DNA of 64,000 nt. Origin: a virus. Under the pieces are notes generated by a model, which did no database searches, had not been told where the DNA came from, and saw only the letters and a program-made list of their open reading frames with translations. Location of the stretch: positions 20,384 through 84,383 of IMG/VR virus record IMGVR_UViG_3300045282_000112. One strand, 5' to 3'. Each line of letters begins with the position of its first letter. Position 1 is the stretch's first letter. Shown here one piece after another: positions 4,849 through 43,820 of the stretch. The translations under genes and the position numbers were made by a program.

Positions 4849-4861
4849 CGCTGGTCCCTTT

Positions 4862-5548
4862 CTAGGTCGTTACCGCCATGTCCACCTTGCAGTGCGCGGG
4901 GACGTAGCGTTCGAGCATGCAGTCGATCTCTTCCAGCGTGGCGAGGCCCAGCTTGACGTTGTGCCCGAGCTTGAAGTTGAGCACCGCCCCCTGCTTGAAT
5001 GCAGGTGACATACCGGTGTTGATCACCACGTGGAAGGTGGAATAGACGTTAGGATATTGAGTATCGTGGCCAGTCAGCCAGCGACCCGTCGCCGTGTAAC
5101 CATTGGCAGCCAACAGGTCTAACAGATATTTGGCCGTCGGTATTGCACCCACACTGTGCTGCACCTTGGCGCACAGCGACATATTGTATATGTCGCACTC
5201 GTCAGGGATGCCGAAGTCGGCGGCCCACGCATCGAGGTCCTCGTCCGACGTGGAGCAAATCCACTCGTCGAGGCTGATGCACATCGCGTCTTCGTAGTTC
5301 AGCCATGACAGCGCGAGCCCCGACATGAACTGCCGGATGATGCTGCCCCGCTCGTAGCTCGTCTCGGTGTTGTCCCACGCCGTGCCGCGTGGCAGCAGGT
5401 TCATGAACGCGAGGAAGCATGCGTCATGGTCGGGGCAGTAGGTGTAGTCGGACGGGACCGGCTCGCCTTCCAGCTCCGCTGGCGCAGGCTCCCAGTCGGC
5501 CACGTAGGTGTCTGGACCAGCAGGCACTAGGACAAGGTCGTTGCTCAT
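4862..5548 (-). CDS. Baseplate wedge protein (Mu gp48/YmfQ, DUF2313-like)
   Basis: FMNLLPRGTAWD motif; ATGA overlap with the baseplate J stop places the start at 5548 (MSNDLVL). Confidence 0.75.
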   Translation of the reverse strand: MSNDLVLVPAGPDTYVADWEPAPAELEGEPVPSDYTYCPDHDACFLAFMNLLPRGTAWDNTETSYERGSIIRQFMSGLALSWLNYEDAMCISLDEWICSTSDEDLDAWAADFGIPDECDIYNMSLCAKVQHSVGAIPTAKYLLDLLAANGYTATGRWLTGHDTQYPNVYSTFHVVINTGMSPAFKQGAVLNFKLGHNVKLGLATLEEIDCMLERYVPAHCKVDMAVTT

Positions 5549-6636
5549 GCGATGAACCGCACGGTGCCGAGCGTCGGCAAGCCGCCCGGTGAAGTGATCG
5601 GGATCACGATGTTGGCGCTGCTCGGGTAGTCGGTGAAGTAGTTGTGGCTGCGCACCCACTTCGGTGCCATCGCCACTGCCTCGTTGATCCACGCGAGGCT
5701 GAAGTGCGAAGGCTCGATGGTGCTCGCGGGCTCGGCGCGGCGCATGAACATCGCCTTCAGTTCTTTCACCACGTCGTCACGCACTGCGCTGGTGTCGGGC
5801 ACCAGTGCCTGCACTGTGACGTTGACCACTGACGGCACGGGCTTCGCGACGATGACGTTGGCGTCGCTGGGTGCCAACGTCTGCAGGATGACCTTCAGCT
5901 GTTCAACGTCGTTGTCGGCGGGGATGCCGTTGCCGACGCTGTCCATCATGAAGTAGATCGTCACGCTGCCCGGCTGTGGAGTAGCGCGCTTGACGAACAC
6001 GCGCGTGATGCCCGCCTTGGTCTGGCACCACTCAACATATTCGGCAGGCGTTCCGCCGTGCGGCGGGTTCTGTTTGCGATACAGAATGCGCTGCCGAAAG
6101 CTGTCATCACTCTCGGCAGCGCGCCCCCCGATGAGGCCGCCGGTCGCGACAGTGAAGCCTGTCACCCCAGCAATTGGCGTCAACGGCGTGAGCGTAGCGC
6201 CTGCATCGGTGTTGGCAAGCTCACCCGCCGAGTAGGCGCGCATGAACAGCGTGAGCGTCGAGGTGGTGGCAGTGACGGTGCCGACGGTGATGAACGTCTC
6301 GCCGTCGGAGCGCATGAACGCGGTGCCGTCGTAGACCACGACGCCGAGCACCGATGGCGAGGAGACCGAGCCCTGCGCAAAGCCGGGTGGATTGCGTGAC
6401 AGGCCGCCCGCTTGGATGCCGTGCCAGTCGAGGTAGTCGCCGGTCGCGGTGGTGACAAACGCCTGTTGATGAATGAACTCCAAGCGCAGGTAGCCCATGC
6501 GCAGCGCCTGCCCGAAAGCTTTCAACACGGGCACGAGGTTGTTTGGCCAAATCCAAGGATCGGTGCCAGCAACTTCGGACTGCACAGAATTGCGCAGGTC
6601 CTGAATGATCTCTTCTGTGCTTGGAGCGGTATACAT
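5545..6636 (-). CDS. Baseplate J/gp47-like protein
   Basis: TATGDYLDWHG, GGRAAESDDSFRQRIL...PPHGGTPAEYVEW motifs. Confidence 0.92.
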   Translation of the reverse strand: MYTAPSTEEIIQDLRNSVQSEVAGTDPWIWPNNLVPVLKAFGQALRMGYLRLEFIHQQAFVTTATGDYLDWHGIQAGGLSRNPPGFAQGSVSSPSVLGVVVYDGTAFMRSDGETFITVGTVTATTSTLTLFMRAYSAGELANTDAGATLTPLTPIAGVTGFTVATGGLIGGRAAESDDSFRQRILYRKQNPPHGGTPAEYVEWCQTKAGITRVFVKRATPQPGSVTIYFMMDSVGNGIPADNDVEQLKVILQTLAPSDANVIVAKPVPSVVNVTVQALVPDTSAVRDDVVKELKAMFMRRAEPASTIEPSHFSLAWINEAVAMAPKWVRSHNYFTDYPSSANIVIPITSPGGLPTLGTVRFIA

Positions 6637-6644
6637 GCTGGTGC

Positions 6645-7229
6645 CTATTGCATAGCGTAGAGATCATGTCGGAAGGCGCGTTCGTATTTCTTGGCATAGA
6701 CCTTGATATAGATGGAGATCATGCCACGGGTCCTGTCGATCTCAGCCTTCACCTCGACATTGTTGATGACACCAGCGCGGATCATCACTTGCAGGGCTTC
6801 GGCGCAAAAGTGCTCGGCCATCTTGCAGGTGTAGTCGGTGAGCGGTGCGCGGCGCAGCGTCCACAGCAGCGAGCCGAGCGGCTCTTCGCCCGGTGCAATG
6901 CCCTCCGTATTGCCGTGCCACTCGTGTTGATCGGCGACGGTGAAGCCCATGCGTCCGATCATCCAGTCAGGCAGCCGTGCATCAGAGGCGATGCACAGCA
7001 GCACGGCGGTGCCGACCGGGTCGACGTTGGCGAGGCCGCCCGAGTTGAGCACCCGCTGCACCGTCGTAACCTCCCCAGTGCGCGGATCGACCACCTCATA
7101 AGGCGAAGCTATCGGCTCCCCCGGTATTCCTTCCGGCTCCGGTGGCGGCTGGAGTTGCCAGTTGCCGACCGTGCCGAGCGCCGGATCGGTTGACCAGATG
7201 GTGTCCCAGAGAGCACTGCTGCTGCTCAT
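6645..7229 (-). CDS. Mu gp46-like baseplate protein
   Basis: AVLLCIASDAR...WHGN...LGSLLWTLRRAPLT...AEALQ. Confidence 0.85.
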   Translation of the reverse strand: MSSSSALWDTIWSTDPALGTVGNWQLQPPPEPEGIPGEPIASPYEVVDPRTGEVTTVQRVLNSGGLANVDPVGTAVLLCIASDARLPDWMIGRMGFTVADQHEWHGNTEGIAPGEEPLGSLLWTLRRAPLTDYTCKMAEHFCAEALQVMIRAGVINNVEVKAEIDRTRGMISIYIKVYAKKYERAFRHDLYAMQ

Positions 7230-7675
7230 GACACAGCTCCCACGAATGTCCGATACGTTGCCCCCACGGTGCCCGAGACGATGATCGGTGGCGTCCCGGT
7301 GCCGGGTTGCGCGCCGGGGATGGCGATCTCGAAAGCGGTCAGCGTGAAGGCGTTGCCCGCCGCCACGTCGAGCGGGTTACCGAGCGAGCCTGCAGCCAAC
7401 AGCCGCACCGCCCCTTCGCGGTCATCGACGAGCGACCAGAAGGCGGCGTGCCCGTCGTGGAAGACCATGCCGTAGATGATCTCCAGCACGATCACCTTGC
7501 GGCCGACCGGCAGGTAGTTCGACGGGCCGACGACGCTGGGCACGACCCAGCCGAGCGCACCGTGCATCGCGCTGCCGTAGTCAGTCGGCTCAGCAGGCCC
7601 GATGAGCAGGCGCGTTGTCTCGCGCACCAGCACCTCCAGTCCACGGTCGAGCACGCGTGCATCAAGGTAGCTCAT
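7226..7675 (-). CDS. Conserved phage virion/baseplate-associated protein
   Basis: VLDRGL...EPTDY...GRKV...RLLAAGSL...GNAFTL pattern seen in phage structural proteins; position in the baseplate operon. Confidence 0.55.
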   Translation of the reverse strand: MSYLDARVLDRGLEVLVRETTRLLIGPAEPTDYGSAMHGALGWVVPSVVGPSNYLPVGRKVIVLEIIYGMVFHDGHAAFWSLVDDREGAVRLLAAGSLGNPLDVAAGNAFTLTAFEIAIPGAQPGTGTPPIIVSGTVGATYRTFVGAVS

Positions 7676-7679
7676 GCGA

Positions 7680-7940
7680 TCAGTCCTCGACGTAGGTGCG
7701 GACGGCTGTTGCGGTGAGCGTTGCGCCGCACGTCGCCATGCTGCCGTTGAAGGCGACCAGCTTGTCTTCGACGTAGGTGCGGATGCAGCCGGTCGCGATT
7801 GGATTGGGACCGTGGATCGGGCAGCAATAGATGTCGCCGATGCGGGCGATCAGGATGTCCTCTGCGTAGGTGCGCGTGGCAGACGTGCAGACCACGTCGC
7901 CGTGCGAGCCGGGATCACCGAGACGCAGGATCAGCGGCAC
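7680..7940 (-). CDS. PAAR-domain spike tip protein
   Basis: RLGDPGSHG, IARIGD, CPIHG, CGATL; adjacent to the spike gene. Confidence 0.88.
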   Translation of the reverse strand: MPLILRLGDPGSHGDVVCTSATRTYAEDILIARIGDIYCCPIHGPNPIATGCIRTYVEDKLVAFNGSMATCGATLTATAVRTYVED

Positions 7941-8351
7941 TCACGCGCCCGACCGGTTGATGTGAACTTTTCCATCGCGGAAGCACTCGATGGTGGCCTT
8001 GCCGACCTTGCGCTTCCATACGTCTTTGGTGCCGTGGTCGAAGCCGCCCCACATCTCGTAGAGTTTGAACTCGCCCTCTTTTAGGTCTTTCGGCCTATAC
8101 TTCGGGTGCTCCATGCCAATCACCATTGCGGCGTCGTTGTTGCCGCCAAGGTTCATGTTGACGCCCTGTGAGCCCACGGGTGCGTGGTTGGTGAAGCCGT
8201 AGCTCTGCACACGTGGGATCGCGAACTTGCCGCTGGTGCCGCCGTAGCGTTCACCCTGACGACCGTCAGCCTCCACCCGCTGCTGCTCCTTGTCGTCGTG
8301 TGTTTTGACCAACTGATTGCGGTGGATCATGTTGTCCATCTGCGTGGCCAT
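7941..8351 (-). CDS. Baseplate spike (Mu gp45-like)
   Basis: QSYGFTNHAP.G, HPKYRPKDLKEGE. Confidence 0.85.
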   Translation of the reverse strand: MATQMDNMIHRNQLVKTHDDKEQQRVEADGRQGERYGGTSGKFAIPRVQSYGFTNHAPVGSQGVNMNLGGNNDAAMVIGMEHPKYRPKDLKEGEFKLYEMWGGFDHGTKDVWKRKVGKATIECFRDGKVHINRSGA

Positions 8352-8362
8352 AGCTCACCTCC

Positions 8363-9562
8363 TTATCCGGGGAAGCCCCCACCTCTGAGGAAGTCCGTAT
8401 CGACGATGGTGCCGAGCGTGTTGATATCGAAACGCCGGTTCCACATGCTGCCGCTATTGCATGGCGTTGCACCCGCAGGATCGATGCTGGTCGGTGCCTC
8501 CAGCGAGGTCGGATCGACCAGCGTCAACTCGGTGACCGAGCCTTCAGCCAGCGACTGCTTGAACACGATGCGCGAGGTGCGCAGCGTGCAGTTGACCTTC
8601 AGCCATGGTGCGAACACGTAGACATCGGCGAGCAACACCCAGATCGGCCCGCCCGACGATGCCTCACGGCCATACGGGACGTTCTTCGGCACGAAGCTCT
8701 CACCTGCGGGCGAGTGCCAACCGGGCACCGTCACGGTGCACTGCAAGCTGGCCCCGCTTGACCGCTGCGCCTCCCATGCGGCGCGTGTCTGTGCACGTTG
8801 CACATCGACCACCGCTGGCTCCAGAATGATCTTGGTGCGGTTGCGGGCGAGGAAGGACTGTGCCATCGCACCCGGCTGGAGGTTCTGCTTCAAGTCGGTG
8901 CCGTAAGGGGTCTGCCCGAGAACCTTCGTGACGGCATCCTCGTCGGTCAGGCGTGCCGACATCTTGAGGATGTTCTCGCCCTGCACGATTGGGCCCTGCA
9001 CGCCCAAAGCTTTGCCTGCGCTGACCGAGATGCCGCCGTCCATCATGCCGTGCAGGAGGTGGCCGTAGTTCTTGAGCATTCGCATGCTCTCTGCGTAGAT
9101 CGTCGCCCCCTGCCGTATCTGCCAAACCGGCACAATCGAGTTGTCGCTATCGTTCGTCACGGTGAGGCCAAGCGGCTGCGCCCACGCCTGCACCAACTCC
9201 CAAATCCCCTTGTTCTCGTAGTAGCCACCAGTGTCGGAGACGATTGAACTCAGGTTGATGCTCGACCCCTCGTTCTTGGCGGTGATCGTGATCGAGTGCT
9301 GTTCAGCGTCGGCGCTAGGTGCGTATTGCCAGACGGCGGCGCGTGCCACGAAGTCACCGTTGGCGAACACCTCGATGATCGTCCCGGGAGGAAAATTCCA
9401 CTTGTCGAAAGCCGCCACTGTGCTCGCCCCGACCGGCGTGATCTCAGTGGTGGAAAGCATGATGTTGACGATGTCGGTCGCGGTATCCTGCTCGATGACG
9501 ACTGTCTCCCAATCGGAATAGACGCCGCTGTCAGCCACCACTGTTATCTGCTCGAAAGGCAT
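8363..9562 (-). CDS. Baseplate hub (Mu gp44/P-like)
   Basis: YSDWETVVI, QGENIL, AQTRAAWE, VTVPGW; gene order. Confidence 0.8.
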   Translation of the reverse strand: MPFEQITVVADSGVYSDWETVVIEQDTATDIVNIMLSTTEITPVGASTVAAFDKWNFPPGTIIEVFANGDFVARAAVWQYAPSADAEQHSITITAKNEGSSINLSSIVSDTGGYYENKGIWELVQAWAQPLGLTVTNDSDNSIVPVWQIRQGATIYAESMRMLKNYGHLLHGMMDGGISVSAGKALGVQGPIVQGENILKMSARLTDEDAVTKVLGQTPYGTDLKQNLQPGAMAQSFLARNRTKIILEPAVVDVQRAQTRAAWEAQRSSGASLQCTVTVPGWHSPAGESFVPKNVPYGREASSGGPIWVLLADVYVFAPWLKVNCTLRTSRIVFKQSLAEGSVTELTLVDPTSLEAPTSIDPAGATPCNSGSMWNRRFDINTLGTIVDTDFLRGGGFPG

Positions 9563-29579: not shown

Positions 29580-30470
29580 TCACGTCAGGGGGACGATGGA
29601 GCACCGACAATTGGGATGGGCGGGGATCAGGTCCCTCGCTTCTGCCAGCGTATAGCTGTTGCCTTCGTAGTTTTCGCATATGTCGCAGACCTTGTCATCC
29701 CCAACCGTCTCGACCGTGTAAGCCTCGGGCGGGCGGTCACGCTCCTCGGGGAACGATACTGCCTCCGGGTTCTCCTCGGGCAACATGCTTTCCGGCACAC
29801 GATGGTCGGGGTGCGTCTCGGCTTCGACGCCCACCGTCTGGATGCCCAGCTCCTCGTAAGCGTCGAGCTTGCCCGCGTTGTATGCCCGGGTAACGTTGGT
29901 AGATGACAACGCGTTGAGGCGGCTCACCAGCGGGCGGATGACGAAGGGCAGGACCGCCATCGTGTAGAGCAGATGGCGTGAGCGGGTGGCCGCCGCCGCC
30001 AGCGTGTCGTCCTCCTCCAGCTGCTGCTTCATCTCGTCGATCTGGTCGAGGAGCATTGCCTCCAGCTCGGTGCGCGCCTTCAGGATCAGGTCAGTGGTGC
30101 TGTTGGTGAGCGGCAGCACTGGGGCGACTTCCTGCCCCGCCTTGCGCACGCCGCGCGCGTAGGCGGTGCGCAACAGCGTTTCCATGTTGTCGGTGGCGGG
30201 CGTGAACGCGAACTCTGCCTGCCTGAGCAACAGGGTATCTAGCCGTTCGAGCAGTGCCTCGATGTCGCCGGGGTCCACGTCGCCGTAGGAATAGCCGAAC
30301 TGATCCGCTTCCACCAAGGCGGCGTAGGCTTGGCTGCGCCACAGCGCGAGGCTCTGCCGCATGCCGGTCGCCATCCTGCGCCGGATGTCGTTCGACTGCG
30401 TCGGGTCACGCTTCTTCGCCGCATCGCTGAAGGCGTGCGGGTGCACATGCGGGGCCGACGCAGGGAACAA
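29580..30470 (-). CDS. Head morphogenesis protein (MuF/SPP1 gp7-like), no toxin extension; start uncertain
   Basis: RDPT, AYARG, TRAYN.GKLD.Y..LG, TVGDDKVCDIC...IPAHPNCRC. Confidence 0.85.
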   Translation of the reverse strand: MFPASAPHVHPHAFSDAAKKRDPTQSNDIRRRMATGMRQSLALWRSQAYAALVEADQFGYSYGDVDPGDIEALLERLDTLLLRQAEFAFTPATDNMETLLRTAYARGVRKAGQEVAPVLPLTNSTTDLILKARTELEAMLLDQIDEMKQQLEEDDTLAAAATRSRHLLYTMAVLPFVIRPLVSRLNALSSTNVTRAYNAGKLDAYEELGIQTVGVEAETHPDHRVPESMLPEENPEAVSFPEERDRPPEAYTVETVGDDKVCDICENYEGNSYTLAEARDLIPAHPNCRCSIVPLT

Positions 30471-30471
30471 C

Positions 30472-30933
30472 TCAGACCCAATCGTCGGGCATGCGCGCGG
30501 CGGGCGTCTTGTTGTCGATGCGCGGCTCGATGCCGTTGGCAATCTGGATCGGCGGCACCAGCTTGCCCGACGCGATGAGCTTGCCAGCCCCGCTGGCCGC
30601 TCCCCCGATGGCGAAGTGCGTGGCGTAGAACGGTTGCACGATGTCGGTCGGGATGGTGAAGGCAATGACGTTGACCGCTGTCACCATGCCGCCGCCCACC
30701 TTCCAGCCGAGCGGATTGCGCGGCACCAGCACGCGCGCGTAGCCAGTGTAGAAGACCTCGCTGGTCAACTGGTCCTGCACCTGATTGGTGGGCAGGATCG
30801 GGTCGGCCTTGCACAGCGACACGTAGAAGCTGGTGAGCGGCGTGGTCGTGTGGTTGATGGCGATGCCTTGGATGGCGACAGCTTGGAAGAGGAGCTTCAA
30901 GATGTCGTCTTCGAACGGAATGGTCGTGGGCAT
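30472..30933 (-). CDS. Virion structural protein
   Basis: FEDDILKLLF...YVSL..ADP...TSEV.YTGYARV...ATHF.IG. Confidence 0.7.
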   Translation of the reverse strand: MPTTIPFEDDILKLLFQAVAIQGIAINHTTTPLTSFYVSLCKADPILPTNQVQDQLTSEVFYTGYARVLVPRNPLGWKVGGGMVTAVNVIAFTIPTDIVQPFYATHFAIGGAASGAGKLIASGKLVPPIQIANGIEPRIDNKTPAARMPDDWV

Positions 30934-31049: not shown

Positions 31050-31262
31050 TTAGTCGATGGGCGGGCCGACGTAGGTCAACACGTTGTTGCGCATTTCGAA
31101 CAGGGTCCAGTCCTGCAGGTGCTCGGGCAGTTCGCTCTCGTATTCCGGGGTCCACTCCTGCGGCAGGTTACCGACCCAGTTGAAGGCGATGTAGTTCTCG
31201 CGATCCACTGGCAAGCCTGCCTTGACCAGCCACCTCTCGATCCCGTCAGGACTTCCTTGCAT
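31050..31262 (-). CDS. Small acidic protein, candidate antidote/partner of the upstream effector
   Basis: 70 aa, overlaps the stop of the 574-aa gene; GLPVDRENYI...EYESELP. Confidence 0.65.
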   Translation of the reverse strand: MQGSPDGIERWLVKAGLPVDRENYIAFNWVGNLPQEWTPEYESELPEHLQDWTLFEMRNNVLTYVGPPID

Positions 31263-32970
31263 TTGCCCGTTCCCCTATCGCCCACACTGCGTCCAGCACC
31301 TTGTCGTGCGTGATCTTGTCGGCGTTGTAATCCTTCCACAACGCTGCGATCTCCGCATCGTCGGCCTTGTTGAGATTGGCGAACAGGTCGCGCTTCACCA
31401 CCCAGATCACTGCCTGCATCTGGTTGGGCAGCAGCGGCGGCTTCTGCTCGGCGGCCAATTGCCGATACGCCTCGGCGTATATGCCGTAGGTGCCGAAAGC
31501 ACCGTAGCGGTTGCTGTCCTTGGCGGGCTCCCAGCCCTCGGGCTTCACCGACGGGTTGTTGGCGAGACCCTGCGAGACGGCGGGCGCGCCACCCGGGTAG
31601 GGCTGCATCCACGCTGCGCCGATAGCGTGCGTATCCATGGTCACGTCACCGTCGAGCCCGTCGGGGTCGAGGATGTTGTTGTAGAAATTGCGCACCTTGT
31701 GGACTTGGCTGAGCGCCTCGCTGATCTGGATGCGGTCGCCGTTCGCCATCAGCGCCGCCACTGCCGCGCCCGTCGCCTTGGTGTTGTTCCAGCCCGCCTT
31801 CGACTTCGCGCCGACTTCCTCGCCCGTATCCGGGGCGTTGGTGTGGAAGTCGCCGAAGGTGCCGTCGGGATTGTAGATGCGGAAGCCATGCCCGCCGTTC
31901 TGCGCGGGGTCGCCATGCGCCTCCTCGTAGGCGCGTATCCACAGGCCCTTCTCTTCGGCGCTCTCGCACTCAGCCAGCGTCTTGCCCACAATGGACGGCA
32001 GCATCTTCACCATCGGCGGCGTCTTCTTGACCTTGCCGGTCTCCCGCAGCTTCTTCTCGGCGGACTTCGCCTCGTCGCTGACCAGCTTGTCGGCGAACGC
32101 CTGCATGCCGTCGTCCCAAGCATGCTCCTGCTTGGTCATGTAGATGTCGATCAGCTGGTCGCCGAGATATATGTTCTGATCCCAGTCCTTCTGCGGCGAA
32201 AGTGCGGCGTAGACGGCGGCGACACTGGCGTCGTTCAGGCCATACTGCTTGACCTTGTGATCGACGATCTGGCGCGCGCCGCGATACCAGTTGACCGCCG
32301 TAAGCTGCGCTGCCGTGGCCTTGCCGAGCAGGTAGTTCATGTTGGTCTTCATGATGCGGATGGCGTTGTGCGCGATGTCGTTGGCGCTGCCCGTCAGCAT
32401 CTCGGGCCGCATGCCCGGGTAGAAGTCGGGGTTCTTCATCAAGTCCATGTTGGCGCTGAAGCGGCCCTTCGTCGTGCCGTCGGGCAGCTTTACCGGGTCG
32501 TCCTCGGTGCGCTGCATCTGCGCGAGGTCGTTCTGGACGTAGGTGTTGTCGCTGTTCTGCGTCTTGAACTTGGTCGAGGTGACGCTGGGGCTGATCTTGG
32601 CCGGGTGCGACGTGGGCTTGGTGCCGCTGATCCGCTCCTTCGGATAGGAGTGCGTGCCGGTCGCCGTTGCCGTCTTCTTGACCGCCTCGGCCTTTGGTGT
32701 GGCTGCCTTGCGCTCGCTGCCCGCCTTCTCGCTGCTGCCGCCGCTGCTGCCGCCACCCGTCGTCCACTCACCCTGCTCGTTGCGCGGCTCGTCGGGATCG
32801 TAGTCGGCGATGACGTGCTTCGGATGCTCGGCGGGCACGAGGAACAACACCTGACCGTCGGCGAAAGTCACCTTGGCGAGCGCATGGTTCTCACGGCTCG
32901 CGGGGCTCCAATCCGACTTGACGTAGGCAACGGTAGCGCGCCGTCCGTTGATCTCCAGCTGCTCGATCAT
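31246..32970 (-). CDS. 574-aa effector-like protein: small N-domain, tag motif, HhH-GPD glycosylase-like domain
   Basis: ATGA overlap at 32970; NWY.GA...AALSPQKDW..N, KVRNFYNNI, VTMDTHA, AEAYR...QMQAVIW. Confidence 0.7.
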   Translation of the reverse strand: MIEQLEINGRRATVAYVKSDWSPASRENHALAKVTFADGQVLFLVPAEHPKHVIADYDPDEPRNEQGEWTTGGGSSGGSSEKAGSERKAATPKAEAVKKTATATGTHSYPKERISGTKPTSHPAKISPSVTSTKFKTQNSDNTYVQNDLAQMQRTEDDPVKLPDGTTKGRFSANMDLMKNPDFYPGMRPEMLTGSANDIAHNAIRIMKTNMNYLLGKATAAQLTAVNWYRGARQIVDHKVKQYGLNDASVAAVYAALSPQKDWDQNIYLGDQLIDIYMTKQEHAWDDGMQAFADKLVSDEAKSAEKKLRETGKVKKTPPMVKMLPSIVGKTLAECESAEEKGLWIRAYEEAHGDPAQNGGHGFRIYNPDGTFGDFHTNAPDTGEEVGAKSKAGWNNTKATGAAVAALMANGDRIQISEALSQVHKVRNFYNNILDPDGLDGDVTMDTHAIGAAWMQPYPGGAPAVSQGLANNPSVKPEGWEPAKDSNRYGAFGTYGIYAEAYRQLAAEQKPPLLPNQMQAVIWVVKRDLFANLNKADDAEIAALWKDYNADKITHDKVLDAVWAIGERANARKS

Positions 32971-35405
32971 CTCAGGCGGCCTTGCTTTACCAGCTCCTTG
33001 TAGGTCTTCTTCACGTCCCGGTAGTAGCTGTTCCAGCTCGGCGTATGCTTGACGCTGCCCAGCTCGTATTCGAGGCGCGCCATCTCGGCCATGGTCTCGT
33101 GCATGCCCTGCCGTGTGGATGCGCCACTGTGCTTGACGGCGTTCCACCACTCGGTCGAGTAGTCGGTGAGCCCGTCCTCGTCGGCCAGCTTCTGCCAGTT
33201 CAGGTTATGCTTCACGAAGCGTTCGTAGATCGGGAACTGCTTGTCGTAGGGCGGGGCGAGGCTGCCGTCGGGGTGCATCCATCCCTTCCACGGTTTGTCG
33301 GGGTCGGGGCCCGGCTCGTTGACGCCCGGCAGCGCCTTCTGCATGGCCTCGCTCTCTGCCTGCAGCGCGTCCAGCACCTGCTGATACTGGATGTGCATCA
33401 CCTCGTGCGAGGTGACGCCCGCGATGGTGCCCGAGTTCAGCTGGTCGGGGAACATCAGCACGGTGCCACGCTTGTGGCCGCCGGGTGGCTGATCCATCGA
33501 GTAGGCCATGCCCGCCGCCATGTATTCCCGCCCGCCCAGCACGAAGCGCGCGTCGGAAGGCTTGCCGATCATCACCGTCTTCGGGTCTGCCCCCAGCTCC
33601 TCGGCGACGTTGCGCGCCTCGTTCAGCGTGTGGTGCACGCCCATCAGGGTTTCGCGGGATGCCCAGACGTAGGGGTCCTCGCTCATCGGCGGGTTGACGA
33701 CGTAGGCGCGCTGCAGCTTCTCGGCCTCCGACCATGAGGTGACGCGCTCGCCATCTGTCCGCGCGTAGCGCTCGCCGCGCTTGGCGTAGAGGGTGGTGAC
33801 GTGCTCCGGGTCGTAGCTCATCAGCACGATGTCGGGCTCGCCCTTGTTGAATTTGGCGAAGGTCTCCTTATTCCAGCCGTCGGGCTTGAAGGTCTCGTTC
33901 CACGGCAGGCGTGCGGCGGCGCGGAAGCCCGCCTCGGCGTAAGCCTGCGGCAGCACGGTGTCGAAGCAGTCGAGGCGTCGGCCGCCTTGATCGACCGCCA
34001 GCTGCAGCGCCGACAGGGCGAAGTTGTCCACCTTGCTGTCGTGGTGCTTGAACACCGAGACGATGTTGTCGCCGTCGAGCGCGAAGCCAGCCTTGCCGTC
34101 GAGCGTCGTGAACAGCCGCAGCTTGCGATAGTCGTCGGGGTCCTTGATCTCCACCGCCGTGCCGTATTTGGTCGAGGCGGCAGCCGCTGCGATGGCGTCT
34201 TGCAGATCGCGGAAGTCGGTGCCCGAGCGGATCATGCGGGTGTTCAGCTCTTCGAAGTGAGCTGGCGTCGCCTTGTTGGTCTTCAGGTAAGCCTTAAATC
34301 CCGGCGTCGGCCGGAAGATCATGCGCCCACCGCTAGTAATTGCTCTAAAGCTTCTTCCTTTGTAAGGCTTGGATGAGCTGACAGGACTTCGCGGAGGAGC
34401 TGGTGCATACGGGGGGTTAGACCCTGCTCCAGCATGCGCCGTGCCTGTTCCTCCAGTGGCGGCCGATGCTCCTCCTCCTGATCCTGCAGCCGAAGGTGAG
34501 CCCCCGCCGCCCCCGCCGCCTTCTCCGGTCCATTGTCCGCCGCCCTCTTCCCCTGCGGGAACTCGCGGTTGGTCTGGGTCATACGCGTCAATCCTCCTGC
34601 TGTCGCTGCTCGCGGCGGCGACACGCTTTTTCAACTCGGTCCAGTGCAAAGTGACACTGGGCGCGACGCGTATGCCGCGCCCCTGTATAAGTGGGGTGCG
34701 GGCGATCACATCGCCACGGTATACGTTAACAATATCGTCGATTGATACACCGCCGATGACCCCTACCTCGTTTTCTGAGGTGCCCTGCACACGGCGCAGG
34801 CGCTCGTCGACGGGTTGCCGGATGGCGATCACGTAGGCGGGCCGGTCCCAATCGGCCTTCTGCTGCTGCGGCGCGAAGCTGCTGGCGTAGGACGCTGCCA
34901 CGCTCGGGTCAGTGGCGTAGTAGGTCAGGCCCTTCTGCGCCTCGCCGATGTTGTATTCGCCCTTGCTGCGCACCTCCCCCGTCGCTTGGATGGCTTCGAA
35001 CTCGGCCGCCGCCATGCCCCGGTAGATGATACCGGCAGAGCGTGCGCCCGGAAGGTCGCCCTGATGCGGGGCAGTCGGGATCAGCTGGTCATGTTCCATG
35101 TCGACCGGCTTGCCCTCATACTCCAGCACCATCCGCTCGTGGCGGTAGAAGCGTGGGTCGTAGTGACCTATCGTGTCGCGGTTGGCTTGGTAGGGCACCC
35201 GCTTCTCGGGTCCTGCAGGCGTGAAGCCTCCCTCGCCCGAGGTCCACTGCCCCGACGGGTCGCGTGGCTGGTCGGGATCGAAGTCCTGCCACCGCTGCAG
35301 CCGCTGGGGCGGGCTGTAGGGCTCGCAATCGAAATGCGCTACCCAAGCGTCCCGAAAGCGGCTGGCGCGCTCCAGCAGGGCTGCAGGGGGCAGGAAAAGG
35401 CTCAC
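32967..35405 (-). CDS. 812-aa polyvalent protein: ART-like, GNAT-like and zincin metallopeptidase domains
   Basis: GTGA overlap start at 35405; YRGM...TYYATD...ENEVGV; DNIVSVF...GGRRLDCFDT.LP..Y...GF; HEVMH...TDYS...HETMAE. Confidence 0.72.
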   Translation of the reverse strand: MSLFLPPAALLERASRFRDAWVAHFDCEPYSPPQRLQRWQDFDPDQPRDPSGQWTSGEGGFTPAGPEKRVPYQANRDTIGHYDPRFYRHERMVLEYEGKPVDMEHDQLIPTAPHQGDLPGARSAGIIYRGMAAAEFEAIQATGEVRSKGEYNIGEAQKGLTYYATDPSVAASYASSFAPQQQKADWDRPAYVIAIRQPVDERLRRVQGTSENEVGVIGGVSIDDIVNVYRGDVIARTPLIQGRGIRVAPSVTLHWTELKKRVAAASSDSRRIDAYDPDQPRVPAGEEGGGQWTGEGGGGGGGSPSAAGSGGGASAATGGTGTAHAGAGSNPPYAPAPPRSPVSSSKPYKGRSFRAITSGGRMIFRPTPGFKAYLKTNKATPAHFEELNTRMIRSGTDFRDLQDAIAAAAASTKYGTAVEIKDPDDYRKLRLFTTLDGKAGFALDGDNIVSVFKHHDSKVDNFALSALQLAVDQGGRRLDCFDTVLPQAYAEAGFRAAARLPWNETFKPDGWNKETFAKFNKGEPDIVLMSYDPEHVTTLYAKRGERYARTDGERVTSWSEAEKLQRAYVVNPPMSEDPYVWASRETLMGVHHTLNEARNVAEELGADPKTVMIGKPSDARFVLGGREYMAAGMAYSMDQPPGGHKRGTVLMFPDQLNSGTIAGVTSHEVMHIQYQQVLDALQAESEAMQKALPGVNEPGPDPDKPWKGWMHPDGSLAPPYDKQFPIYERFVKHNLNWQKLADEDGLTDYSTEWWNAVKHSGASTRQGMHETMAEMARLEYELGSVKHTPSWNSYYRDVKKTYKELVKQGRLR
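34319..34582 (-). CDS. Nested out-of-frame small gene (87 aa) inside the polyvalent-protein linker
   Basis: AGGAGG 10 nt before ATG; helical C-terminus LLREVLSAHPSLTKEEALEQLLAVGA; stop overlaps an in-frame ATG of the host gene. Confidence 0.6.
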   Translation of the reverse strand: MTQTNREFPQGKRAADNGPEKAAGAAGAHLRLQDQEEEHRPPLEEQARRMLEQGLTPRMHQLLREVLSAHPSLTKEEALEQLLAVGA

Positions 35406-36166
35406 AGAGCGAACAGCTCCTCCCACATCGCCTGCGCGTTGGCGAGCGCTTGCGTGGCAGTAGGCCCGCTGCCGAGGCACCTGCCAGTGTGCATGGCCAC
35501 GAAGCTCTCGGCTTCGAACTGCTCGCGGCTGTCCATGGCGTAGGGTGAAACGGCGTCCTTGTCGGCGTAGCGGGCGACGATGGCGTCAACCACATCGGGC
35601 CCGTGCGCGGTGCGCAGCTCCTGCATGAGGATGTGCCCGAACTGGTGCAGGAGCGTGCCGTCGGCGCTGCTGTCGACCATCAGGCCCTTCCACTCACGCT
35701 CGTGTGCAGCGAGCTGGTCGGGGTGCCACTGGCGGGCGTTGAGGATAAGCTTGCCGTCGCCCGCCAGAACGAACTCGCGGTCGCCGAGGTCGCGCATCTC
35801 GACCTTGATGGGGCTGTCGATCAACGGGGAATAGTCCTCCGCGAGCTGGTCCATGGCGTCCTTGGCGTTGAGCTTGGCCTCGGTCTGCTTCATGCGGTAG
35901 CTGTAGCTCGGGCTGCCGTCCGGTCGCACGTCCTCCTCTTCGCCTGCGTCGTCGGGTTCCACGTCCCATTCGAGCAGGTTGTGCATGGGCATGGCGAGGT
36001 CGGAGGCGTTGAACGCGCTCTCCGGGCCCCATGTGCCCGTGCGGTTCGACCATGCGCTGATGACAGTGGTCTCTGGATTGCGCACCTCGGCGGCGCGGAA
36101 CTGCTCGCCCTGCGGGGAGGTGACGTTGTAAACCCGCCGTGCGTTGGGCGGTCTGTCGGCGGCCAT
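35402..36166 (-). CDS. Protein with N-terminal acidic domain and degenerate zincin (HQFGH)
   Basis: AAGGA RBS; LILN, TLLHQFGH, VSPYA...QFEAESF. Confidence 0.7.
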   Translation of the reverse strand: MAADRPPNARRVYNVTSPQGEQFRAAEVRNPETTVISAWSNRTGTWGPESAFNASDLAMPMHNLLEWDVEPDDAGEEEDVRPDGSPSYSYRMKQTEAKLNAKDAMDQLAEDYSPLIDSPIKVEMRDLGDREFVLAGDGKLILNARQWHPDQLAAHEREWKGLMVDSSADGTLLHQFGHILMQELRTAHGPDVVDAIVARYADKDAVSPYAMDSREQFEAESFVAMHTGRCLGSGPTATQALANAQAMWEELFAL

Positions 36167-36200: not shown

Positions 36201-38594
36201 TCAGCAGTCCTTCTGCCAGCCGCAGCCGTCACCGGAGCGGTTGTAACCCTCGACGTATCCGCGCTCCGAGGTCTTCTCGATCTCGTCGATGCGCGCCTCC
36301 TCCTCGGGGCTCTTGTTCTCCTTCGCCACGAGCACGCGGCGCTCCTCGTAGAGCTGGTGACCCTCGCCGAACTTGTATTCGAGCAGCGCGTGGGTGTTGA
36401 ACTGCAGCTCGGTGACGATGCCGTCCTTGGTGCGGAAGTTGAGCATCAGGTCACGGTAGCCTGCCATGGGGGTGAGGAAGCGGTCCTTGACGCGGATCAC
36501 GTCGTTGTTTTCGACGAAGTCCGCCACCGCCTGACGCACGGTCACGCAGTCGTCGAAGGCGACGGTAGCGCGCAGCACATCCTTCAATCCCTCGGGTGGC
36601 ACCTTCTCGTCGCGCATCTTGCGCTCGGCCGACGAGCGCGCCTTCATGGTGCGGGTGCCGGGCTCGGCACTGGTAGCGGGCGGGTAGGTGACCTTGCCGC
36701 CGAACTTCTGTGCAAACTCCTCGACCGTGCTCATGAACTCAGGCTCGGCGGTCTTGCAGGCCGCATACAGCTCGTCGATGTCGTTGGTCGGCTGTATCTG
36801 CTGATCCGGCGGCTGGTAATCCGCGCCCATGTTCTGCGCGATGTCGGTCTTCTTCGCGACCGTGGCCGTGCCCTTCGACTGCGGCGCGGTCTGGGTCTTG
36901 GTGCTGCCGGTAACCTTGGTCTCGCTGCTGGAGCTGCCGCCACCGCCGGGGCCGAACTTGCCCTTGTTGTCGGGCTGGCCGCGCGGGTGCTTGCTCTCTT
37001 CCCACTCGTCGCGCGAGCGCACGCCGAGTAGCTGCCGCACATGATCAGGATCGTAGTCGCGCGTGTGCCGGTAGCGGCGCAGGTTGAGGCGACCGGCGCT
37101 GACCGGCTTGGCGTCACGGGTTGGCTTGCCGCCACCCTTCTGGAACGGGCTACCACCACCGGGCTTCTGCTGCCCCTGCTGGCTCGGGTGCTGGTTGCCC
37201 ATGGCGTTGCCCGCCAGCATCTCCTTGCGCTTCTCGGCCTCGGCTTGCGCTGCCTGCTCCTCGGGGCTCTGCATGCTTTCGAGCGCGAGCTGTTCCTGAT
37301 CCTCAAGCGCCTGCTCAAGGCCCGGGTAGACGCCATCCTCGATCAGCTGGTTCTGCCGCCCGATGCGCAACGCCTCGGCGTCGACCAGCCCCATCATGAC
37401 ATCAAGGTTGGTGACATCGGCCTTCAACTTGGAGACCGCCGCCTTCTCGGTGGCGGGCATCTGCCACAGCGGGTTCCAGATGTAGTAGATCGACGGGTCG
37501 CGCTTGCCCAGTGCAGAGCGGATCAGTGCATCGTCAAGAGAAGCAAGGGCGGGAGACAATACATTGGTCTGATCTGAGTTAACTCGGTCGTAGTAGTTAC
37601 GGACATCACTCTCTCCAGTAGACTGTAGTCCAGCAGGGGACTGTCCCAGCATACGTGTAGCGGGGATGTCTGCTGCACCGGAGGCGATGAGGAGATACAT
37701 CTGCAGGACATCGGGGAGTTGCGTGAAATTCGCATTGATGCGCTCCCACTCCTCCTCCTTGTCGAGGAGCAGCGTGTTGATCACCGACTTCACCGAGTTG
37801 GCATACATGAAGCGTGCGGTGAGCCGGTTCTGATACTCGGCGGTGGCGATGTTCTGCGACAAATCGGGGATTTTAATGATGTCGAACTTGCTTTCGGTGA
37901 CCAACGTCGCGATGGACTGTGTCACCAGCGTCGCCGACATCACGGCGTCCTGCACGTTCTGCAGCACGGGATCGCCCCAGATTTCCCCCATCATCACGGG
38001 GTCGGGCAGCTGCATGCCCTTCAGCACGATGACCCGCGACGGGTGTATCTGGAACTCGTCGCGCGACAGCTCGGTGCCAACGTCCATGTTGCGCGTGAAG
38101 TAGAGCGGCTTGCCGTAGAGCGGGTCCATCACGTCCTTGATGAGCGGACCCGTGCCCAGCGCCCAGCGTGAGACGGGAATGATGAACTCCAGATCGCCCT
38201 TGCCGACCTTCTCGAAATTCAGCGGCTGGCTGGCGCGTCCCTGCTTGATGCCCATGATGATCGCCGCGCCGCCGTAGAGGCGCGCCAAGATCAGCGCCTC
38301 CTTCAGCACGCACTGCACATCGAGGCGCGTCTCTTCGGCCTCCAGCTTCTCGATGACGTTGGTGTCAGCCTGCCACGCACGCCACGCGCGGGTGGCATCC
38401 TGTGCCGGGATGTCGATCAGCTTGCGGGCCAGCCAATTGGCGCGGTAAGCGCTCTCCAGCTCATACTGTGACAGCGGGTTGAACTGGAAAAACGACGCGC
38501 CCGAGGCGGCCTTGTCGCGCCCCGGCACGCCGAAGCCTGCCATGAGGTTGATCAGGCTGTCCTTGAACTCGGCAGTCACCCCTTGATAAGTCAT
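36201..38594 (-). CDS. Portal protein (DUF1073 family) fused to a C-terminal RelA/SpoT-like nucleotidyltransferase
   Basis: WLARKLIDIPAQDATR, ARLYGG, IHPSR, GAADIPATRMLGQSPAGL..TGESD, WNPLWQ; C-term K..SSAERK, KDVLRAT, GYRD, ELQFNT, GHQLYE. Confidence 0.9.
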   Translation of the reverse strand: MTYQGVTAEFKDSLINLMAGFGVPGRDKAASGASFFQFNPLSQYELESAYRANWLARKLIDIPAQDATRAWRAWQADTNVIEKLEAEETRLDVQCVLKEALILARLYGGAAIIMGIKQGRASQPLNFEKVGKGDLEFIIPVSRWALGTGPLIKDVMDPLYGKPLYFTRNMDVGTELSRDEFQIHPSRVIVLKGMQLPDPVMMGEIWGDPVLQNVQDAVMSATLVTQSIATLVTESKFDIIKIPDLSQNIATAEYQNRLTARFMYANSVKSVINTLLLDKEEEWERINANFTQLPDVLQMYLLIASGAADIPATRMLGQSPAGLQSTGESDVRNYYDRVNSDQTNVLSPALASLDDALIRSALGKRDPSIYYIWNPLWQMPATEKAAVSKLKADVTNLDVMMGLVDAEALRIGRQNQLIEDGVYPGLEQALEDQEQLALESMQSPEEQAAQAEAEKRKEMLAGNAMGNQHPSQQGQQKPGGGSPFQKGGGKPTRDAKPVSAGRLNLRRYRHTRDYDPDHVRQLLGVRSRDEWEESKHPRGQPDNKGKFGPGGGGSSSSETKVTGSTKTQTAPQSKGTATVAKKTDIAQNMGADYQPPDQQIQPTNDIDELYAACKTAEPEFMSTVEEFAQKFGGKVTYPPATSAEPGTRTMKARSSAERKMRDEKVPPEGLKDVLRATVAFDDCVTVRQAVADFVENNDVIRVKDRFLTPMAGYRDLMLNFRTKDGIVTELQFNTHALLEYKFGEGHQLYEERRVLVAKENKSPEEEARIDEIEKTSERGYVEGYNRSGDGCGWQKDC

Positions 38595-38735: not shown

Positions 38736-38838
38736 CGTAGTGCTGTTGTGCCCACATGATGCCGACGACCACGCCGATCACCATGCCGCCGAACATCGCG
38801 AGCACGGCAAACAGCGTGCACAGCGCGGCGGTCGTCAC
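38728..38838 (-). CDS. Small TM peptide in the lysis cassette
   Basis: GTGA overlap with the endolysin stop; LFAVLAMFGGMVIGVVVGIMW. Confidence 0.45.
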   Translation of the reverse strand: MTTAALCTLFAVLAMFGGMVIGVVVGIMWAQQHYGV

Positions 38839-39527
38839 ACCATCACCTGCACTTCACGCCGCAGCTTGTCGCCGCACTCCCTCGCGCCCTGCTCAGTGCT
38901 GTCGAAGGCGAGGCGCGTGTAGTCCCACTTGCCTTCCTGTGCGACGCCGCAATTGGCCTGCACCTCGGCGTGGCTGAGCACGGTCTGCGGCGTGACCGGG
39001 ATGCCGTAGAAGACGCAGAGGTCGGCGACGACCGCGATCAGCACTTCCCATTGGTCCTCGGTCATCGGGTAGTCGCCTGCGTCGAACGGGCTTTCCTTCG
39101 CGCCCGACATGCAGCACAGCGAGACGCCGATGGACCCTGTGTTGAAATTCTTGGTGTGCGCCGCGTAGGTGCCGTCGCTGGTGCTGACGTTGTCCTTGAT
39201 CGAGTAGGAGCCACGCACCAGCTTGCCGTCGCCCTCGATCAGGATGTGGTAGTGTGGTGTGTCACCACCGCCCGCCTTGTGCGTGCCAGCGGTCCAGTGG
39301 CAGATGACACGCTCCATGTCGCAGTCTGGCATCCACGACGGCGGCACAATGCCGGGGACGGGGCCTTCACCACCCTCCTCGACCTCGGGCGGCGCAGGCA
39401 GCGGTGCGAACTCGTCGAGCGCATCGAAGATCGCCTCCTCGGTGAGCGGCCCATACATGCCGTCGCTCGGACCCGGGTCGAAGCCCAGCGAGCGCAAGCG
39501 GTCCTGCAGTTCGTCGGTTCGCATCAT
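38835..39527 (-). CDS. Endolysin: peptidoglycan-binding domain + N-acetylmuramoyl-L-alanine amidase
   Basis: LQDRLRSLGFDPGPSDGMYGPLT; ICHWTAG, YHILI, AHT...NTGSIGV, LSHAEV. Confidence 0.92.
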   Translation of the reverse strand: MMRTDELQDRLRSLGFDPGPSDGMYGPLTEEAIFDALDEFAPLPAPPEVEEGGEGPVPGIVPPSWMPDCDMERVICHWTAGTHKAGGGDTPHYHILIEGDGKLVRGSYSIKDNVSTSDGTYAAHTKNFNTGSIGVSLCCMSGAKESPFDAGDYPMTEDQWEVLIAVVADLCVFYGIPVTPQTVLSHAEVQANCGVAQEGKWDYTRLAFDSTEQGARECGDKLRREVQVMV

Positions 39528-43331: not shown

Positions 43332-43820
43332 TCAGACTGCAGCCACCAATGTCACGGGGCAATGCACGCGGCTTTCGCGACCGAGGATTGACAGGAGGAT
43401 AGCGACGCGCTGCTGCGCGTCCATCCCCTCCACGATCCCGACATGATTGACAAACGGTCCATCGGTGATGCGCACCGACTGTCCCTCGCGGAAGGTGTTG
43501 GTGGCATCGGGCAGGCACACGACGCCGACCTCGTCGGCCAGCACCTGATAGCTCTCTACGATCTGCGGAGACACTTCACACGCCCTCGCTCCCATGGCCA
43601 AGACACGCAGCACGCCCATGGTGTTCTGCAGCCACGAGGCAGTGCCCTCGATATGCACAAACAGATAGCCGGGGAACAATCGCAGCGTCTTGCCCCAGCG
43701 GTCGTAGAAGAGAGGCGAGAACACCTCGCCGCCCTGTCGCACAATATGACGCGTGGCGCGGTTCTCGCACAGCGGCTGTGTCTGGGCAACTACCCAGCGC
43801 GGATGTGAGATGGCTCCCAC
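43332..43820 (-). CDS. NusG/RfaH-family transcription antiterminator
   Basis: WVVAQT.P..E, LFPGYLFV (NGN); GQSVRITDGPF...G (KOW). Confidence 0.9.
   Translation of the reverse strand: MGAISHPRWVVAQTQPLCENRATRHIVRQGGEVFSPLFYDRWGKTLRLFPGYLFVHIEGTASWLQNTMGVLRVLAMGARACEVSPQIVESYQVLADEVGVVCLPDATNTFREGQSVRITDGPFVNHVGIVEGMDAQQRVAILLSILGRESRVHCPVTLVAAV

Follow-up and report, generated by a model that had tools for sequence, protein, structure and literature searches.

Type VI effectors, toxin-antitoxin defense systems, and MuF toxins of temperate phages all include toxic alarmone synthetases. In the last of these groups, RelA/SpoT homolog (RSH) toxins that act as (p)ppApp synthetases (Apk2) are fused to MuF and are accompanied by Tis1-like immunity proteins and an HD hydrolase, Aph1 (PMC10083569; PMC12226406). 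RelA/SpoT domains have also been described in polyvalent proteins and on MuF, and portals fused to PBECR, 2H, and InPase domains were reported in the same work (Iyer et al. 2017, PMC5512222). The role of phage-borne toxic alarmone synthetases during infection is a stated open question (PMC10083569). Here we analyzed a 64,000-nucleotide stretch of DNA (the window) that covers positions 20,384 to 84,383 of the IMG/VR virus record IMGVR_UViG_3300045282_000112. A single gene in this window encodes a phage portal protein with an RSH domain at its C-terminal end (portal-RSH), and the gene that follows has at its N-terminus a small domain which we named PRD (post-RSH domain).

We consider it probable that this portal bears a catalytically competent, Tas1-like toxic synthetase (toxSYNTH) on its C-terminal end, which would be guarded by PRD, loaded into the capsid, freed by a protease, and active in the next host. 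RSH and PRD would then form a guarded toxin-immunity pair rather than a bare enzyme on a portal; an earlier reading of the DNA letters and their translations (the sequence-only reading) had missed the partner. A full-text word search of the literature, with figures and supplements outside its scope, found no paper describing a portal-RSH fusion or PRD, and the portal appears to be a new carrier for an RSH effector and PRD a new guard domain. The arrangement would attach a toxin to the portal, which alone among head proteins has a set copy number and a set position where the DNA leaves, in a phage without sign of lysogeny, and the toxin is obligately linked to a previously unnamed partner domain which is predicted to lie over its active site.

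Comparison with Described Systems

As far as Apk2 is described in the passages of the two papers drawn on here (PMC10083569; PMC12226406), both systems place a Tas1-like RSH toxin at the C-terminus of a phage head-assembly protein, with a small protein encoded directly downstream, and both have a syn2 catalytic motif of the R-x-T kind. Neutralization is the role of the Apk2 partner, whereas for PRD it is only predicted by modeling. The carrier is MuF for Apk2 (PAAR for Apk1) but a PF06381 portal here, and the Apk2 partner is Tis1-like, whereas PRD has no detectable likeness to Tis1. Apk2 is accompanied by an HD hydrolase, but none was found in the portal-RSH record; the syn3 motif is GxN in Apk2 and Y-R-D-L here; and a header tag precedes the module here. 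Apk2 occurs in temperate phages, while neither an integrase nor prophage relatives were found for portal-RSH, which is a weak contrast.

The closest solved relative by sequence is Tas1-Tis1 (Apk1), a type VI effector of Pseudomonas aeruginosa (6OX6). Tas1 is delivered via PAAR and the type VI secretion system, whereas a phage portal is the carrier here. Tis1 is described as inhibiting Tas1 by blocking its active site, specifically the acceptor site (PMC11782079), and PRD is likewise predicted to lie over the active site; the two partner proteins are unrelated as far as our tools detect. Polyvalent proteins are similar in that effector enzymes sit on head proteins and are encoded among virion genes, which also holds for portal-RSH. 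The passages of Iyer et al. (2017, PMC5512222) to which our comparison applies (figures and supplements lie outside it) do not name a portal-RelA/SpoT fusion. Polyvalent proteins are said there to differ in theme from toxin systems, and the passages concerned mention no cognate inhibitor, whereas portal-RSH has a dedicated partner.

Architecture of the Portal-RSH Gene

The gene is one uninterrupted open reading frame (ORF) whose third-position GC content (0.85) is typical of genes in this phage. Its parts are given below in window coordinates.

36201..38594, minus strand: portal-linker-tag-RSH fusion, 797 amino acids, a single ORF (stop codon at 36201-36203)
37185..38564, minus strand: portal domain, residues 11-470 (Pfam PF06381 and phrog_146)
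37011..37184, minus strand: linker rich in Q, G, and E, residues 471-528, read from the translation and without a family match
36936..37010, minus strand: header tag DEWEESKHPRGQPDNKGKFGPGGGG, residues 529-553 (six-frame scan with a regular expression)
36204..36794, minus strand: RSH (toxSYNTH) domain, residues 601-797 (family profile, AlphaFold2, Foldseek, and VIA-align)

The portal is complete, as the sequence-only reading had proposed. Pfam family Phage_portal_3 (PF06381, which we take to be the former DUF1073) was matched nearly full length (residues 44-395, profile positions 1-355 of 357, E = 7.5e-99), and the PHROG portal family phrog_146 covered residues 11-470 (E = 9.6e-119). Within the linker there is a degenerate half-tag, DYDPDHVR (residues 513-520, nucleotides 37035-37058). 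The header tag itself, "EWEESKHPRGQPDNKGKFGPGGGG", precedes a C-terminal domain of ~200 amino acids, and its region weakly matched the long-portal family phrog_113 (E = 0.0014). The motifs KARSSAERK (residues 651-659), KDVLRAT (671-677), GYRD (712-715), ELQFNT (729-734), and GHQLYE (745-750) then follow one another in the translation, so that the Q/G-rich linker, the tag, and all five RSH motif strings named by the earlier reading are present in the order it gave.

Identity of the C-Terminal Domain

An in-frame fusion of the portal to a RelA/SpoT-like small alarmone synthetase (SAS) domain, the central claim of the sequence-only reading, was borne out by the family profile, by the modeled fold, and by the conservation of catalytic motifs. 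When the last 249 amino acids were compared with all PDB chains by phmmer, the sole match was the type VI effector and (p)ppApp synthetase Tas1 (6OX6, E = 2.7e-5). The last 230 amino acids (P0002) were searched against 1.84 billion cluster representatives, which gave 1164 relatives at E <= 0.001, 250 at E <= 1e-10, and 28 at E <= 1e-30. From relatives of P0002 an alignment of 32 sequences (A1) was built, whose residue numbers plus 567 correspond to those of the gene. Its profile matched Tas1 (E = 2.8e-24), SaSAS, a synthetase exported by Streptomyces (2.8e-7), and YwaC of B. subtilis (6.6e-6), and RelP and RelA only weakly (E 0.03-0.5); no chain named CapRel or FaRel2 was among the 15 PDB matches at E <= 1. 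The sequence is thus nearer to Tas1 than to (p)ppGpp synthetases or tRNA-targeting toxic SAS (toxSAS) enzymes (profile E = 2.8e-24 vs 2.8e-7 for the next match).

The AlphaFold2 model of the domain, built with A1, reached a predicted local distance difference test score (pLDDT) of 91.1 and a predicted template modeling score of 0.86, and has the nucleotidyltransferase-type alpha/beta fold of SAS enzymes. Foldseek returned 59 PDB matches at E <= 0.001, with Tas1 at the top (3.2e-8), followed by SaEAS, SAS1, RelP, and Rel; among the matches listed, all are RSH synthetases. The same holds for the best matches by VIA-align, which include SAS1 (Z 15.2, root-mean-square deviation 3.7, 169 aligned residues), Tas1 (Z 12.9, root-mean-square deviation 3.5, 164 aligned residues), and CapRel (Z 12.5), the identity to Tas1 (26%) being the highest.

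The sequence-only reading had proposed a profile search against RelA_SpoT. With the Pfam model (PF04607) the domain stayed below the cut-off of 27 bits, scoring 13.7 (E = 0.078), and only sub-threshold RelA_SpoT and GAT matches were seen in the C-terminal 299 amino acids; the RSH assignment nevertheless stood through the match of the family profile to Tas1 and the match of fold. PF04607 gave 22-23 bits for relatives and 30.6 bits for gp034 of the Bordetella phage PHB04 (see below), scores from which this model appears to under-reach for the Tas1-like branch. Among PHROGs, the C-terminal domain had weak matches to phrog_7625 and phrog_5802 only. Taken by sequence and fold comparison, the domain is a RelA/SpoT-homolog synthetase of the toxic (toxSYNTH) kind, with a similarity far beyond chance.

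Eleven positions are invariant in 32 of 32 sequences (A1 numbering: K84, K92, D105, R108, K136, Y146, R147, D148, E162, Q164, and Y182). In gene numbering these are K651 and K659 (syn1), D672 and R675 (syn2), K703, Y713, R714, and D715 (syn3), E729 and Q731 (syn4), and Y749 (syn5). H746 (syn5) is nearly invariant, and R653 is not conserved across the family although it lies within syn1. All five catalytic motifs are therefore present, namely the basic ATP-phosphate motif, the Mg-binding Asp, the G-Y acceptor Tyr, E-x-Q, and H-x-x-Y. In FaRel2, basic residues bind the donor triphosphate, an Asp binds Mg2+, a Tyr stacks on the acceptor base, and E-x-Q contacts the donor adenine (PMC11782079). 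By comparison with these residue roles, the active site of the RSH domain appears to be complete. We equated D672 with D121 of SaEAS based on the D-x-x-R-x-T spacing, and substitution of the latter by Ala is reported to inactivate that enzyme (PMC12691689). Comparison of relatives shows conservation of the active-site motifs throughout a family that numbers more than 1000 cluster representatives, the invariance having been read in the 32-sequence alignment.

Evidence that the Fusion Is Real

The sequencing runs which contain sequence of the uncultured portal-RSH phage are soil metagenomes. In one of them (X1), a contig of 62,493 nucleotides spans the gene and is identical over the whole stretch, and this contig is not independent evidence. 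Independent contigs came from three other soil studies (runs X2-X4); they are short, cover part of the ORF, and reach at least 31 nucleotides to each side of a junction. The end of the portal (nucleotide 37185) is bridged by X2 record 7 and X3 record 16, the start of the tag (37010) by X4 record 23 with zero differences, and both the end of the tag (36936) and the start of the RSH domain (36794) by X3 record 15 and X4 record 22. No insertion or deletion within the ORF was found in these junction-bridging contigs.

Thirty substitutions in the ORF were listed from the contigs, 25 of which are synonymous when read singly. Codons 340 and 245, which were hit more than once, are synonymous when read jointly by hand, leaving T395A and V338I as the amino-acid changes. 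The three substitutions past the portal (at residues 640, 744, and 794) are all synonymous. Two apparent variants were set aside as portal genes of other organisms: "joints" in one X3 contig that skip 447 and 228 nucleotides (sides of 30 and 21 nucleotides), and a CCT insertion in a 192-nucleotide X1 contig that matches over 31 nucleotides only.

The same fusion occurs in relatives. P0006 is a 407-amino-acid fragment with the portal end, the linker, the tag, and an RSH domain at 63% identity, and P0003 (1322 amino acids, from an 85-kb contig) has a portal, a pyridine-nucleotide-disulphide oxidoreductase, and an RSH domain at 59% identity. Because contigs from three other studies bridge each junction and P0003 and P0006 are fused likewise, the portal-RSH fusion is not an assembly artifact. 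The stop or frameshift between portal and domain, which the sequence-only reading had asked to be looked for in the reads, was sought in the contigs of these three studies and not found.

A Partner Domain Linked to the RSH Domain

The gene behind portal-RSH starts 35 nucleotides past its stop codon.

35402..36166, minus strand: gene of 254 amino acids with PRD, an acidic linker, and a C-terminal domain without a known family (ORF list)
35918..36145, minus strand: PRD, the N-terminal ~75 amino acids of the 254-amino-acid gene (profile E = 1.6e-28)

The 254-amino-acid protein had no Pfam, PHROG, or PDB sequence match. PRD was sought in other proteins with phmmer and jackhmmer, using the first 100 amino acids of the 254-amino-acid protein as query (alignment A3). 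A PRD of ~70 amino acids lies directly behind the RSH domain, with a gap of 1-27 amino acids, in P0076, P0154, P0155, P0020, P0030, P0053, L004, and L007 (P, cluster representatives; L, loci fetched for their RSH domain). Profiles of both domains were run in six frames over the window plus 26 fetched RSH loci; PRD was adjacent to or fused with RSH in 22 of these 27 places. After removal of four exact duplicates (L008 and L019 of L007, L018 of L006, and L022 of L021), 18 non-redundant places remain. The five loci without PRD comprise two whose contig ends at the RSH domain (L015 and L016) and three distant ones (L009, L026, and L027, 25-32% identity). Hence PRD is present in 18 of 18 testable non-redundant close relatives, and these scans show the RSH enzyme of the portal-RSH clade to be always accompanied by PRD.

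The layout of PRD varies. Based on ORF bounds, it is a small separate gene in 11 of the 18 places (64-95 amino acids where start codons were read) and the N-terminus of a protein of ~250-290 amino acids in three (the window, L010, and L021). It is fused in cis behind RSH in another three (L004, L007, and L017), and one is cut by the contig end (L024). Among the viral loci read in detail, PRD is a separate small gene in four, one of which has it on the opposite strand (L005). The L005 gene (8642-8938, minus strand) encodes a PRD of 75 amino acids and is convergent with the RSH gene; the GAGAGGA ~4 nucleotides before its ATG looks like a Shine-Dalgarno site of its own. These three arrangements (a gene of its own, the start of the following protein, or a cis fusion in front of a head protease) suggest ways in which phages may arm and disarm dangerous cargo.

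A toxin with a small immunity-like gene behind it is the layout described for MuF toxins and Tas1-Tis1 (PMC10083569; PMC12226406), and the 11 small separate PRD genes agree with it. The module might accordingly be a polymorphic toxin for interbacterial competition, like MuF toxins, which lysogens would release while PRD serves as classical immunity. Against it, neither a tyrosine integrase (PF00589) nor a serine recombinase (PF00239) was found in the 84-kb record at E <= 0.01, the record being 84% complete. When 185,579 species genomes were scanned with two peptide patterns, none of the 29 pattern hits was confirmed as a relative, and no prophage copy was found, which is weak evidence of absence. 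Moreover, a PRD that is fused in cis (3 of 18) or heads a larger virion-module protein (3 of 18) is ill-suited to free immunity in a lysogen. We regard this explanation as very unlikely.

PRD was modeled alone and with RSH. The PRD model is a small beta-rich domain (pLDDT 82.4 overall, >90 for residues 10-70). It had no match to PDB sequences at E <= 10. Against solved folds, the best Foldseek E was 0.23 and the best VIA-align Z 5.2 (root-mean-square deviation 3.2, 59 aligned residues), which is within the noise of the tool, and in a protein atlas there was no usable feature match, with template modeling scores of 0.5-0.6 over short stretches only. Tis1 is absent among the structural matches listed for PRD, although a distant likeness is still possible.

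The complex was predicted from residues 30-230 of RSH (A1) and residues 1-85 of PRD (A3). The interface score (interaction prediction score from aligned errors, ipSAE) was 0.78, 0.77, and 0.78, and the best of three controls had 0.00; of 80 solved complexes 58 attain the mark used for ipSAE, as against 2 among 110 mismatched pairs, a calibration that is approximate for custom alignments. The runs had at least 96% of contacts in common, with a partner pLDDT of at least 81. Since no like complex seems to have been solved, a memorized one is unlikely to be the source of the prediction. In the model, PRD contacts D105, K136, Y146, D148, E162, Q164, H179, and Y182 (A1 numbering), that is, the active site, which it is predicted to plug. 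From gene linkage and this model, we propose that PRD may be a new immunity-like guard of the RSH toxin.

The predicted binding, together with the window, L010, and L021, where PRD is the N-terminus of a protein of ~250-290 amino acids, would also suit a docking adaptor, which grips the portal-borne RSH domain and carries an attached protein (here the 254-amino-acid one) into the capsid in a kind of "daisy chain". On this explanation, however, the 11 of 18 PRDs that are genes of 64-95 amino acids with nothing attached would have no cargo, and the predicted footprint falls on catalytic residues instead of a neutral surface. As an account of PRD it seems to us highly doubtful, although adaptor and inhibitor roles are not mutually exclusive.

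Relatives, Carriers, and Header Tags

The relatives carry the RSH domain on several kinds of proteins. Pfam was run on 10 of the 150 listed representatives and on seven locus ORFs, so the carrier counts are lower bounds. Using the window portal as query, phmmer detected a portal in 4 of the 150 (P0003, P0006, P0025, and P0042), and Pfam added a Mu-type portal in P0034, giving portals in at least 5 of 150; one more is found in locus L006. The portal of P0003 was matched over residues 1-480 (E = 3.7e-221), and a thioredoxin-reductase-like Pyr_redox_2 module stands between it and the RSH domain; this arrangement shows that cargo modules are exchanged. P0042 and the IMG/VR locus L006 combine a portal, in part a NUDIX domain, an Acb1 phosphodiesterase directed against the cyclic-oligonucleotide-based antiphage signaling system (CBASS), and RSH in one polypeptide of 1585-2079 amino acids.

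2382-8618 of locus L006, plus strand: portal-cargo ORF with three HPR tags in its reading frame

Proteases of the DUF2213 head-protease family carry RSH in P0154, P0155, L004, and L007. There, tag, RSH, and PRD are fused to the N-terminus of the protease, at the place where the protease of the window has ChaB, and the N-terminus of this family seems to be a further cargo slot. RSH was also seen on a MuF protein (L009) and on multi-enzyme proteins punctuated by tags, among them that of L005 with its ART-PolyVal domain. Of 153 hits, 98 have the RSH domain no more than 40 residues from the C-terminus, and 31 have a header tag (loose regular expression) within ~70 residues upstream of it.

In the window, the six-frame scan found four tags in predicted genes, none of them outside the block that separates the portal gene from the MuF gene. 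This block and the protease beyond it contain the following features.

32967-35480, minus strand: cargo gene of 837 amino acids with two header tags and a weak match to phrog_2563
35223-35282 and 34530-34583, minus strand: header tags in the 837-amino-acid gene (six-frame scan)
31246-33150, minus strand: cargo gene of 634 amino acids with one header tag and DUF7178 (E = 4.7e-20)
32764-32802, minus strand: header tag in the 634-amino-acid gene (six-frame scan)
29580-30665, minus strand: MuF-like gene, separate from the portal-RSH gene
27351..28823, minus strand: head maturation protease with ChaB (E = 9.2e-19) and DUF2213 (E = 1.9e-50; phrog_530, E = 6.8e-90)

No obvious common residue pattern beyond the tag itself was seen in the upstream contexts of these four tags. 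Five further matches of the loose expression on the plus strand were taken as chance, three of them lying beside stop codons. The DUF2213 head maturation protease is a candidate enzyme for processing of the cargo.

Other searches for relatives gave little. Searching the RSH domain against 50,697 phage records by tblastn yielded one phage, filed twice, with 36% identity over 39% of the query, and a pattern search of viral contigs found no locus related to P0002. Word-index searches for protein homologs gave 3, 6, and 2 hits, which we take to reflect the limited reach of the index, because the exhaustive search gave 1164.

Possible Acceptor and Product

Signatures of Apk enzymes are reported to be RYT in syn2, GxN in syn3, and YH in syn4, and those of guanosine RSH enzymes AVR, SxH, and IR (PMC12226406). 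Portal-RSH has an Apk-like RAT in syn2 (RNT in Tas1) and FN in syn4 (VN in Tas1). Its syn3, Y-R-D-L, matches neither the GxN that proven (p)ppApp synthetases have nor the SxH found in (p)ppGpp synthetases; where Tas1 has GYSGVN, the portal-RSH family has GYRD(I/L)(L/M)xN. Judged by the nearest relative, Tas1, (p)ppApp is our tentative best guess for the product.

A cultured relative bears on this question. In the Bordetella phage vB_BbrM_PHB04 (NC_047861.1, locus 3263-7273, gp035-gp032), genes for a portal, an RSH protein, a 69-amino-acid protein, and an HD_4 protein stand in a row. The RSH protein gp034 (493 amino acids, annotated as hypothetical) belongs to the same RSH clade (profile E = 1.8e-48) and has DIVRAT, GYRDLM, ELQ, and GHEHY. 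Unlike in portal-RSH, portal and RSH are separate genes, the portal belonging to a different family (PF04860), and the 69-amino-acid neighbor of gp034 is not recognizably a PRD (E = 0.21). The HD_4 protein, a "metal-dependent phosphohydrolase" (E = 3.3e-21), has no counterpart found in the phage of the window. From the gene content, this row looks like a set of toxin, small protein, and alarmone hydrolase beside a portal. HD_4 proteins are described as small alarmone hydrolases that neutralize toxSAS products (PMC11782079; PMC10083569). Because a GYRD-type RSH gene neighbors such a hydrolase in PHB04, a pyrophosphorylated nucleotide or tRNA end is favored as the product.

On the other hand, the acceptor may not be ATP, because syn3 Y-R-D is unlike that of proven (p)ppApp or (p)ppGpp makers and because sister portals bear Acb1 and NUDIX beside the same RSH module. 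RSH-PRD might then be a capsid-borne toxin with a safety catch whose acceptor is possibly a host immune-signaling nucleotide or a tRNA end, which would make it a new enzymatic counter-defense. PRD, in trans or fused in cis, would silence the enzyme while DNA is packaged; processing by the head protease or ejection would lift the catch, and ~12 molecules per virion would act in the first seconds of infection. We offer this version tentatively and think it rather unlikely.

Possible Role during Infection

Solved portals have their C-terminal crown turned toward the interior of the capsid, so that twelve copies of an RSH extension would lie inside the head. The sequence-only reading had likewise proposed about 12 enzyme copies loaded per virion with the portal as the carrier. 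Under the interpretation that we prefer, PRD would bind over the active site and keep the enzyme off in the producing cell, where the terminase requires ATP for DNA packaging. Twelve RSH copies would enter each procapsid with the portal ring, and the DUF2213-family head protease may free the RSH module near the header tag. The freed module would exit with the DNA and, in the newly infected cell, pyrophosphorylate adenine nucleotides, most likely to (p)ppApp. The effect could be an arrest of host metabolism or defense, and the Acb1 and NUDIX domains on sister portals hint at a counter-defense role. Enzymes in the RSH toxin class are reported to turn over ~10^5 times per minute (PMC12691689), and therefore a dozen molecules could matter.

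A known parallel, also cited by Iyer et al. (2017, PMC5512222), is phage T4, in which Alt and the internal proteins are targeted to the capsid, undergo trimming by the head protease, and are then injected alongside the DNA, after which they modify the host. By analogy, head loading, protease trimming, and injection might all apply to portal-RSH, for which all three are inferred. T4 loading depends on a short N-terminal targeting peptide, unlike the covalent portal fusion here, and we know of no inhibitor partner of Alt or the internal proteins.

Several points weigh against the preferred interpretation. Cleavage, packaging, and ejection of the module are steps that we infer, portals stay in the capsid after ejection, and an enzyme that drains ATP looks costly for a phage. 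The Pfam score for RelA_SpoT is below threshold, and the syn3 motif is that of neither proven class. No HD_4 domain (PF13328) was found at E <= 1 in the 84-kb record, which is 84% complete. For PRD, no likeness to Tis1 or a solved fold was detected, and the role proposed for it is drawn from gene linkage and one modeling job with custom alignments. In addition, the T7 portal is reported to inhibit RelA and SpoT, and alarmones to restrict T7 (preprint 10.64898/2026.01.27.700999).

Alternatively, the enzyme might act late in the producing cell and never be injected. Fusion to the portal would then provide late timing and a fixed dosage, and PRD would time activation, for example for shutdown of host metabolism or a block of superinfecting phages before lysis. 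The retention of portals in the capsid and the putative status of the cleavage fit such a role, as do the expression of PRD from the same late operon as portal-RSH and the RSH gene of PHB04, which adjoins the portal gene without being fused to it. Nevertheless, fusions of the module to three different proteins of the head interior (two families of portals plus the DUF2213 protease) point to the capsid interior as the common destination, and the same destination is suggested by the header tag that it has in common with other cargo modules. Late activity would also be expected to compete with ATP-driven packaging. We consider such a late role unlikely and favor delivery to the next host. RSH and PRD form a simple pair for experiments, and PHB04 provides a cultured relative.

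Genomic Neighborhood

The IMG/VR record is linear and comprises 84,383 bp with a G+C content of 63% and a CheckV completeness of 84%. On the minus strand, the genes follow in the order TerL, amidase, portal-RSH, 254-amino-acid protein, 837-amino-acid protein, 634-amino-acid protein (DUF7178), MuF-like protein, ChaB+DUF2213 protease, and major capsid protein, so that the portal-RSH gene lies within the head module of the phage. The 837-amino-acid protein has modules in common with the RSH-bearing ORF of locus L002. Two further features lie on the other side of portal-RSH.

43332-43820, minus strand: NusG/KOW-like protein (Pfam NusG, E = 8.5e-9), just upstream of the terminase region
38835-39527, minus strand: endolysin-like gene with Amidase_2 and PG_binding_1 (Pfam), between the terminase and portal genes

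The place of the endolysin-like gene (38835-39527, minus strand), between terminase and portal, is unusual for a lysis gene.

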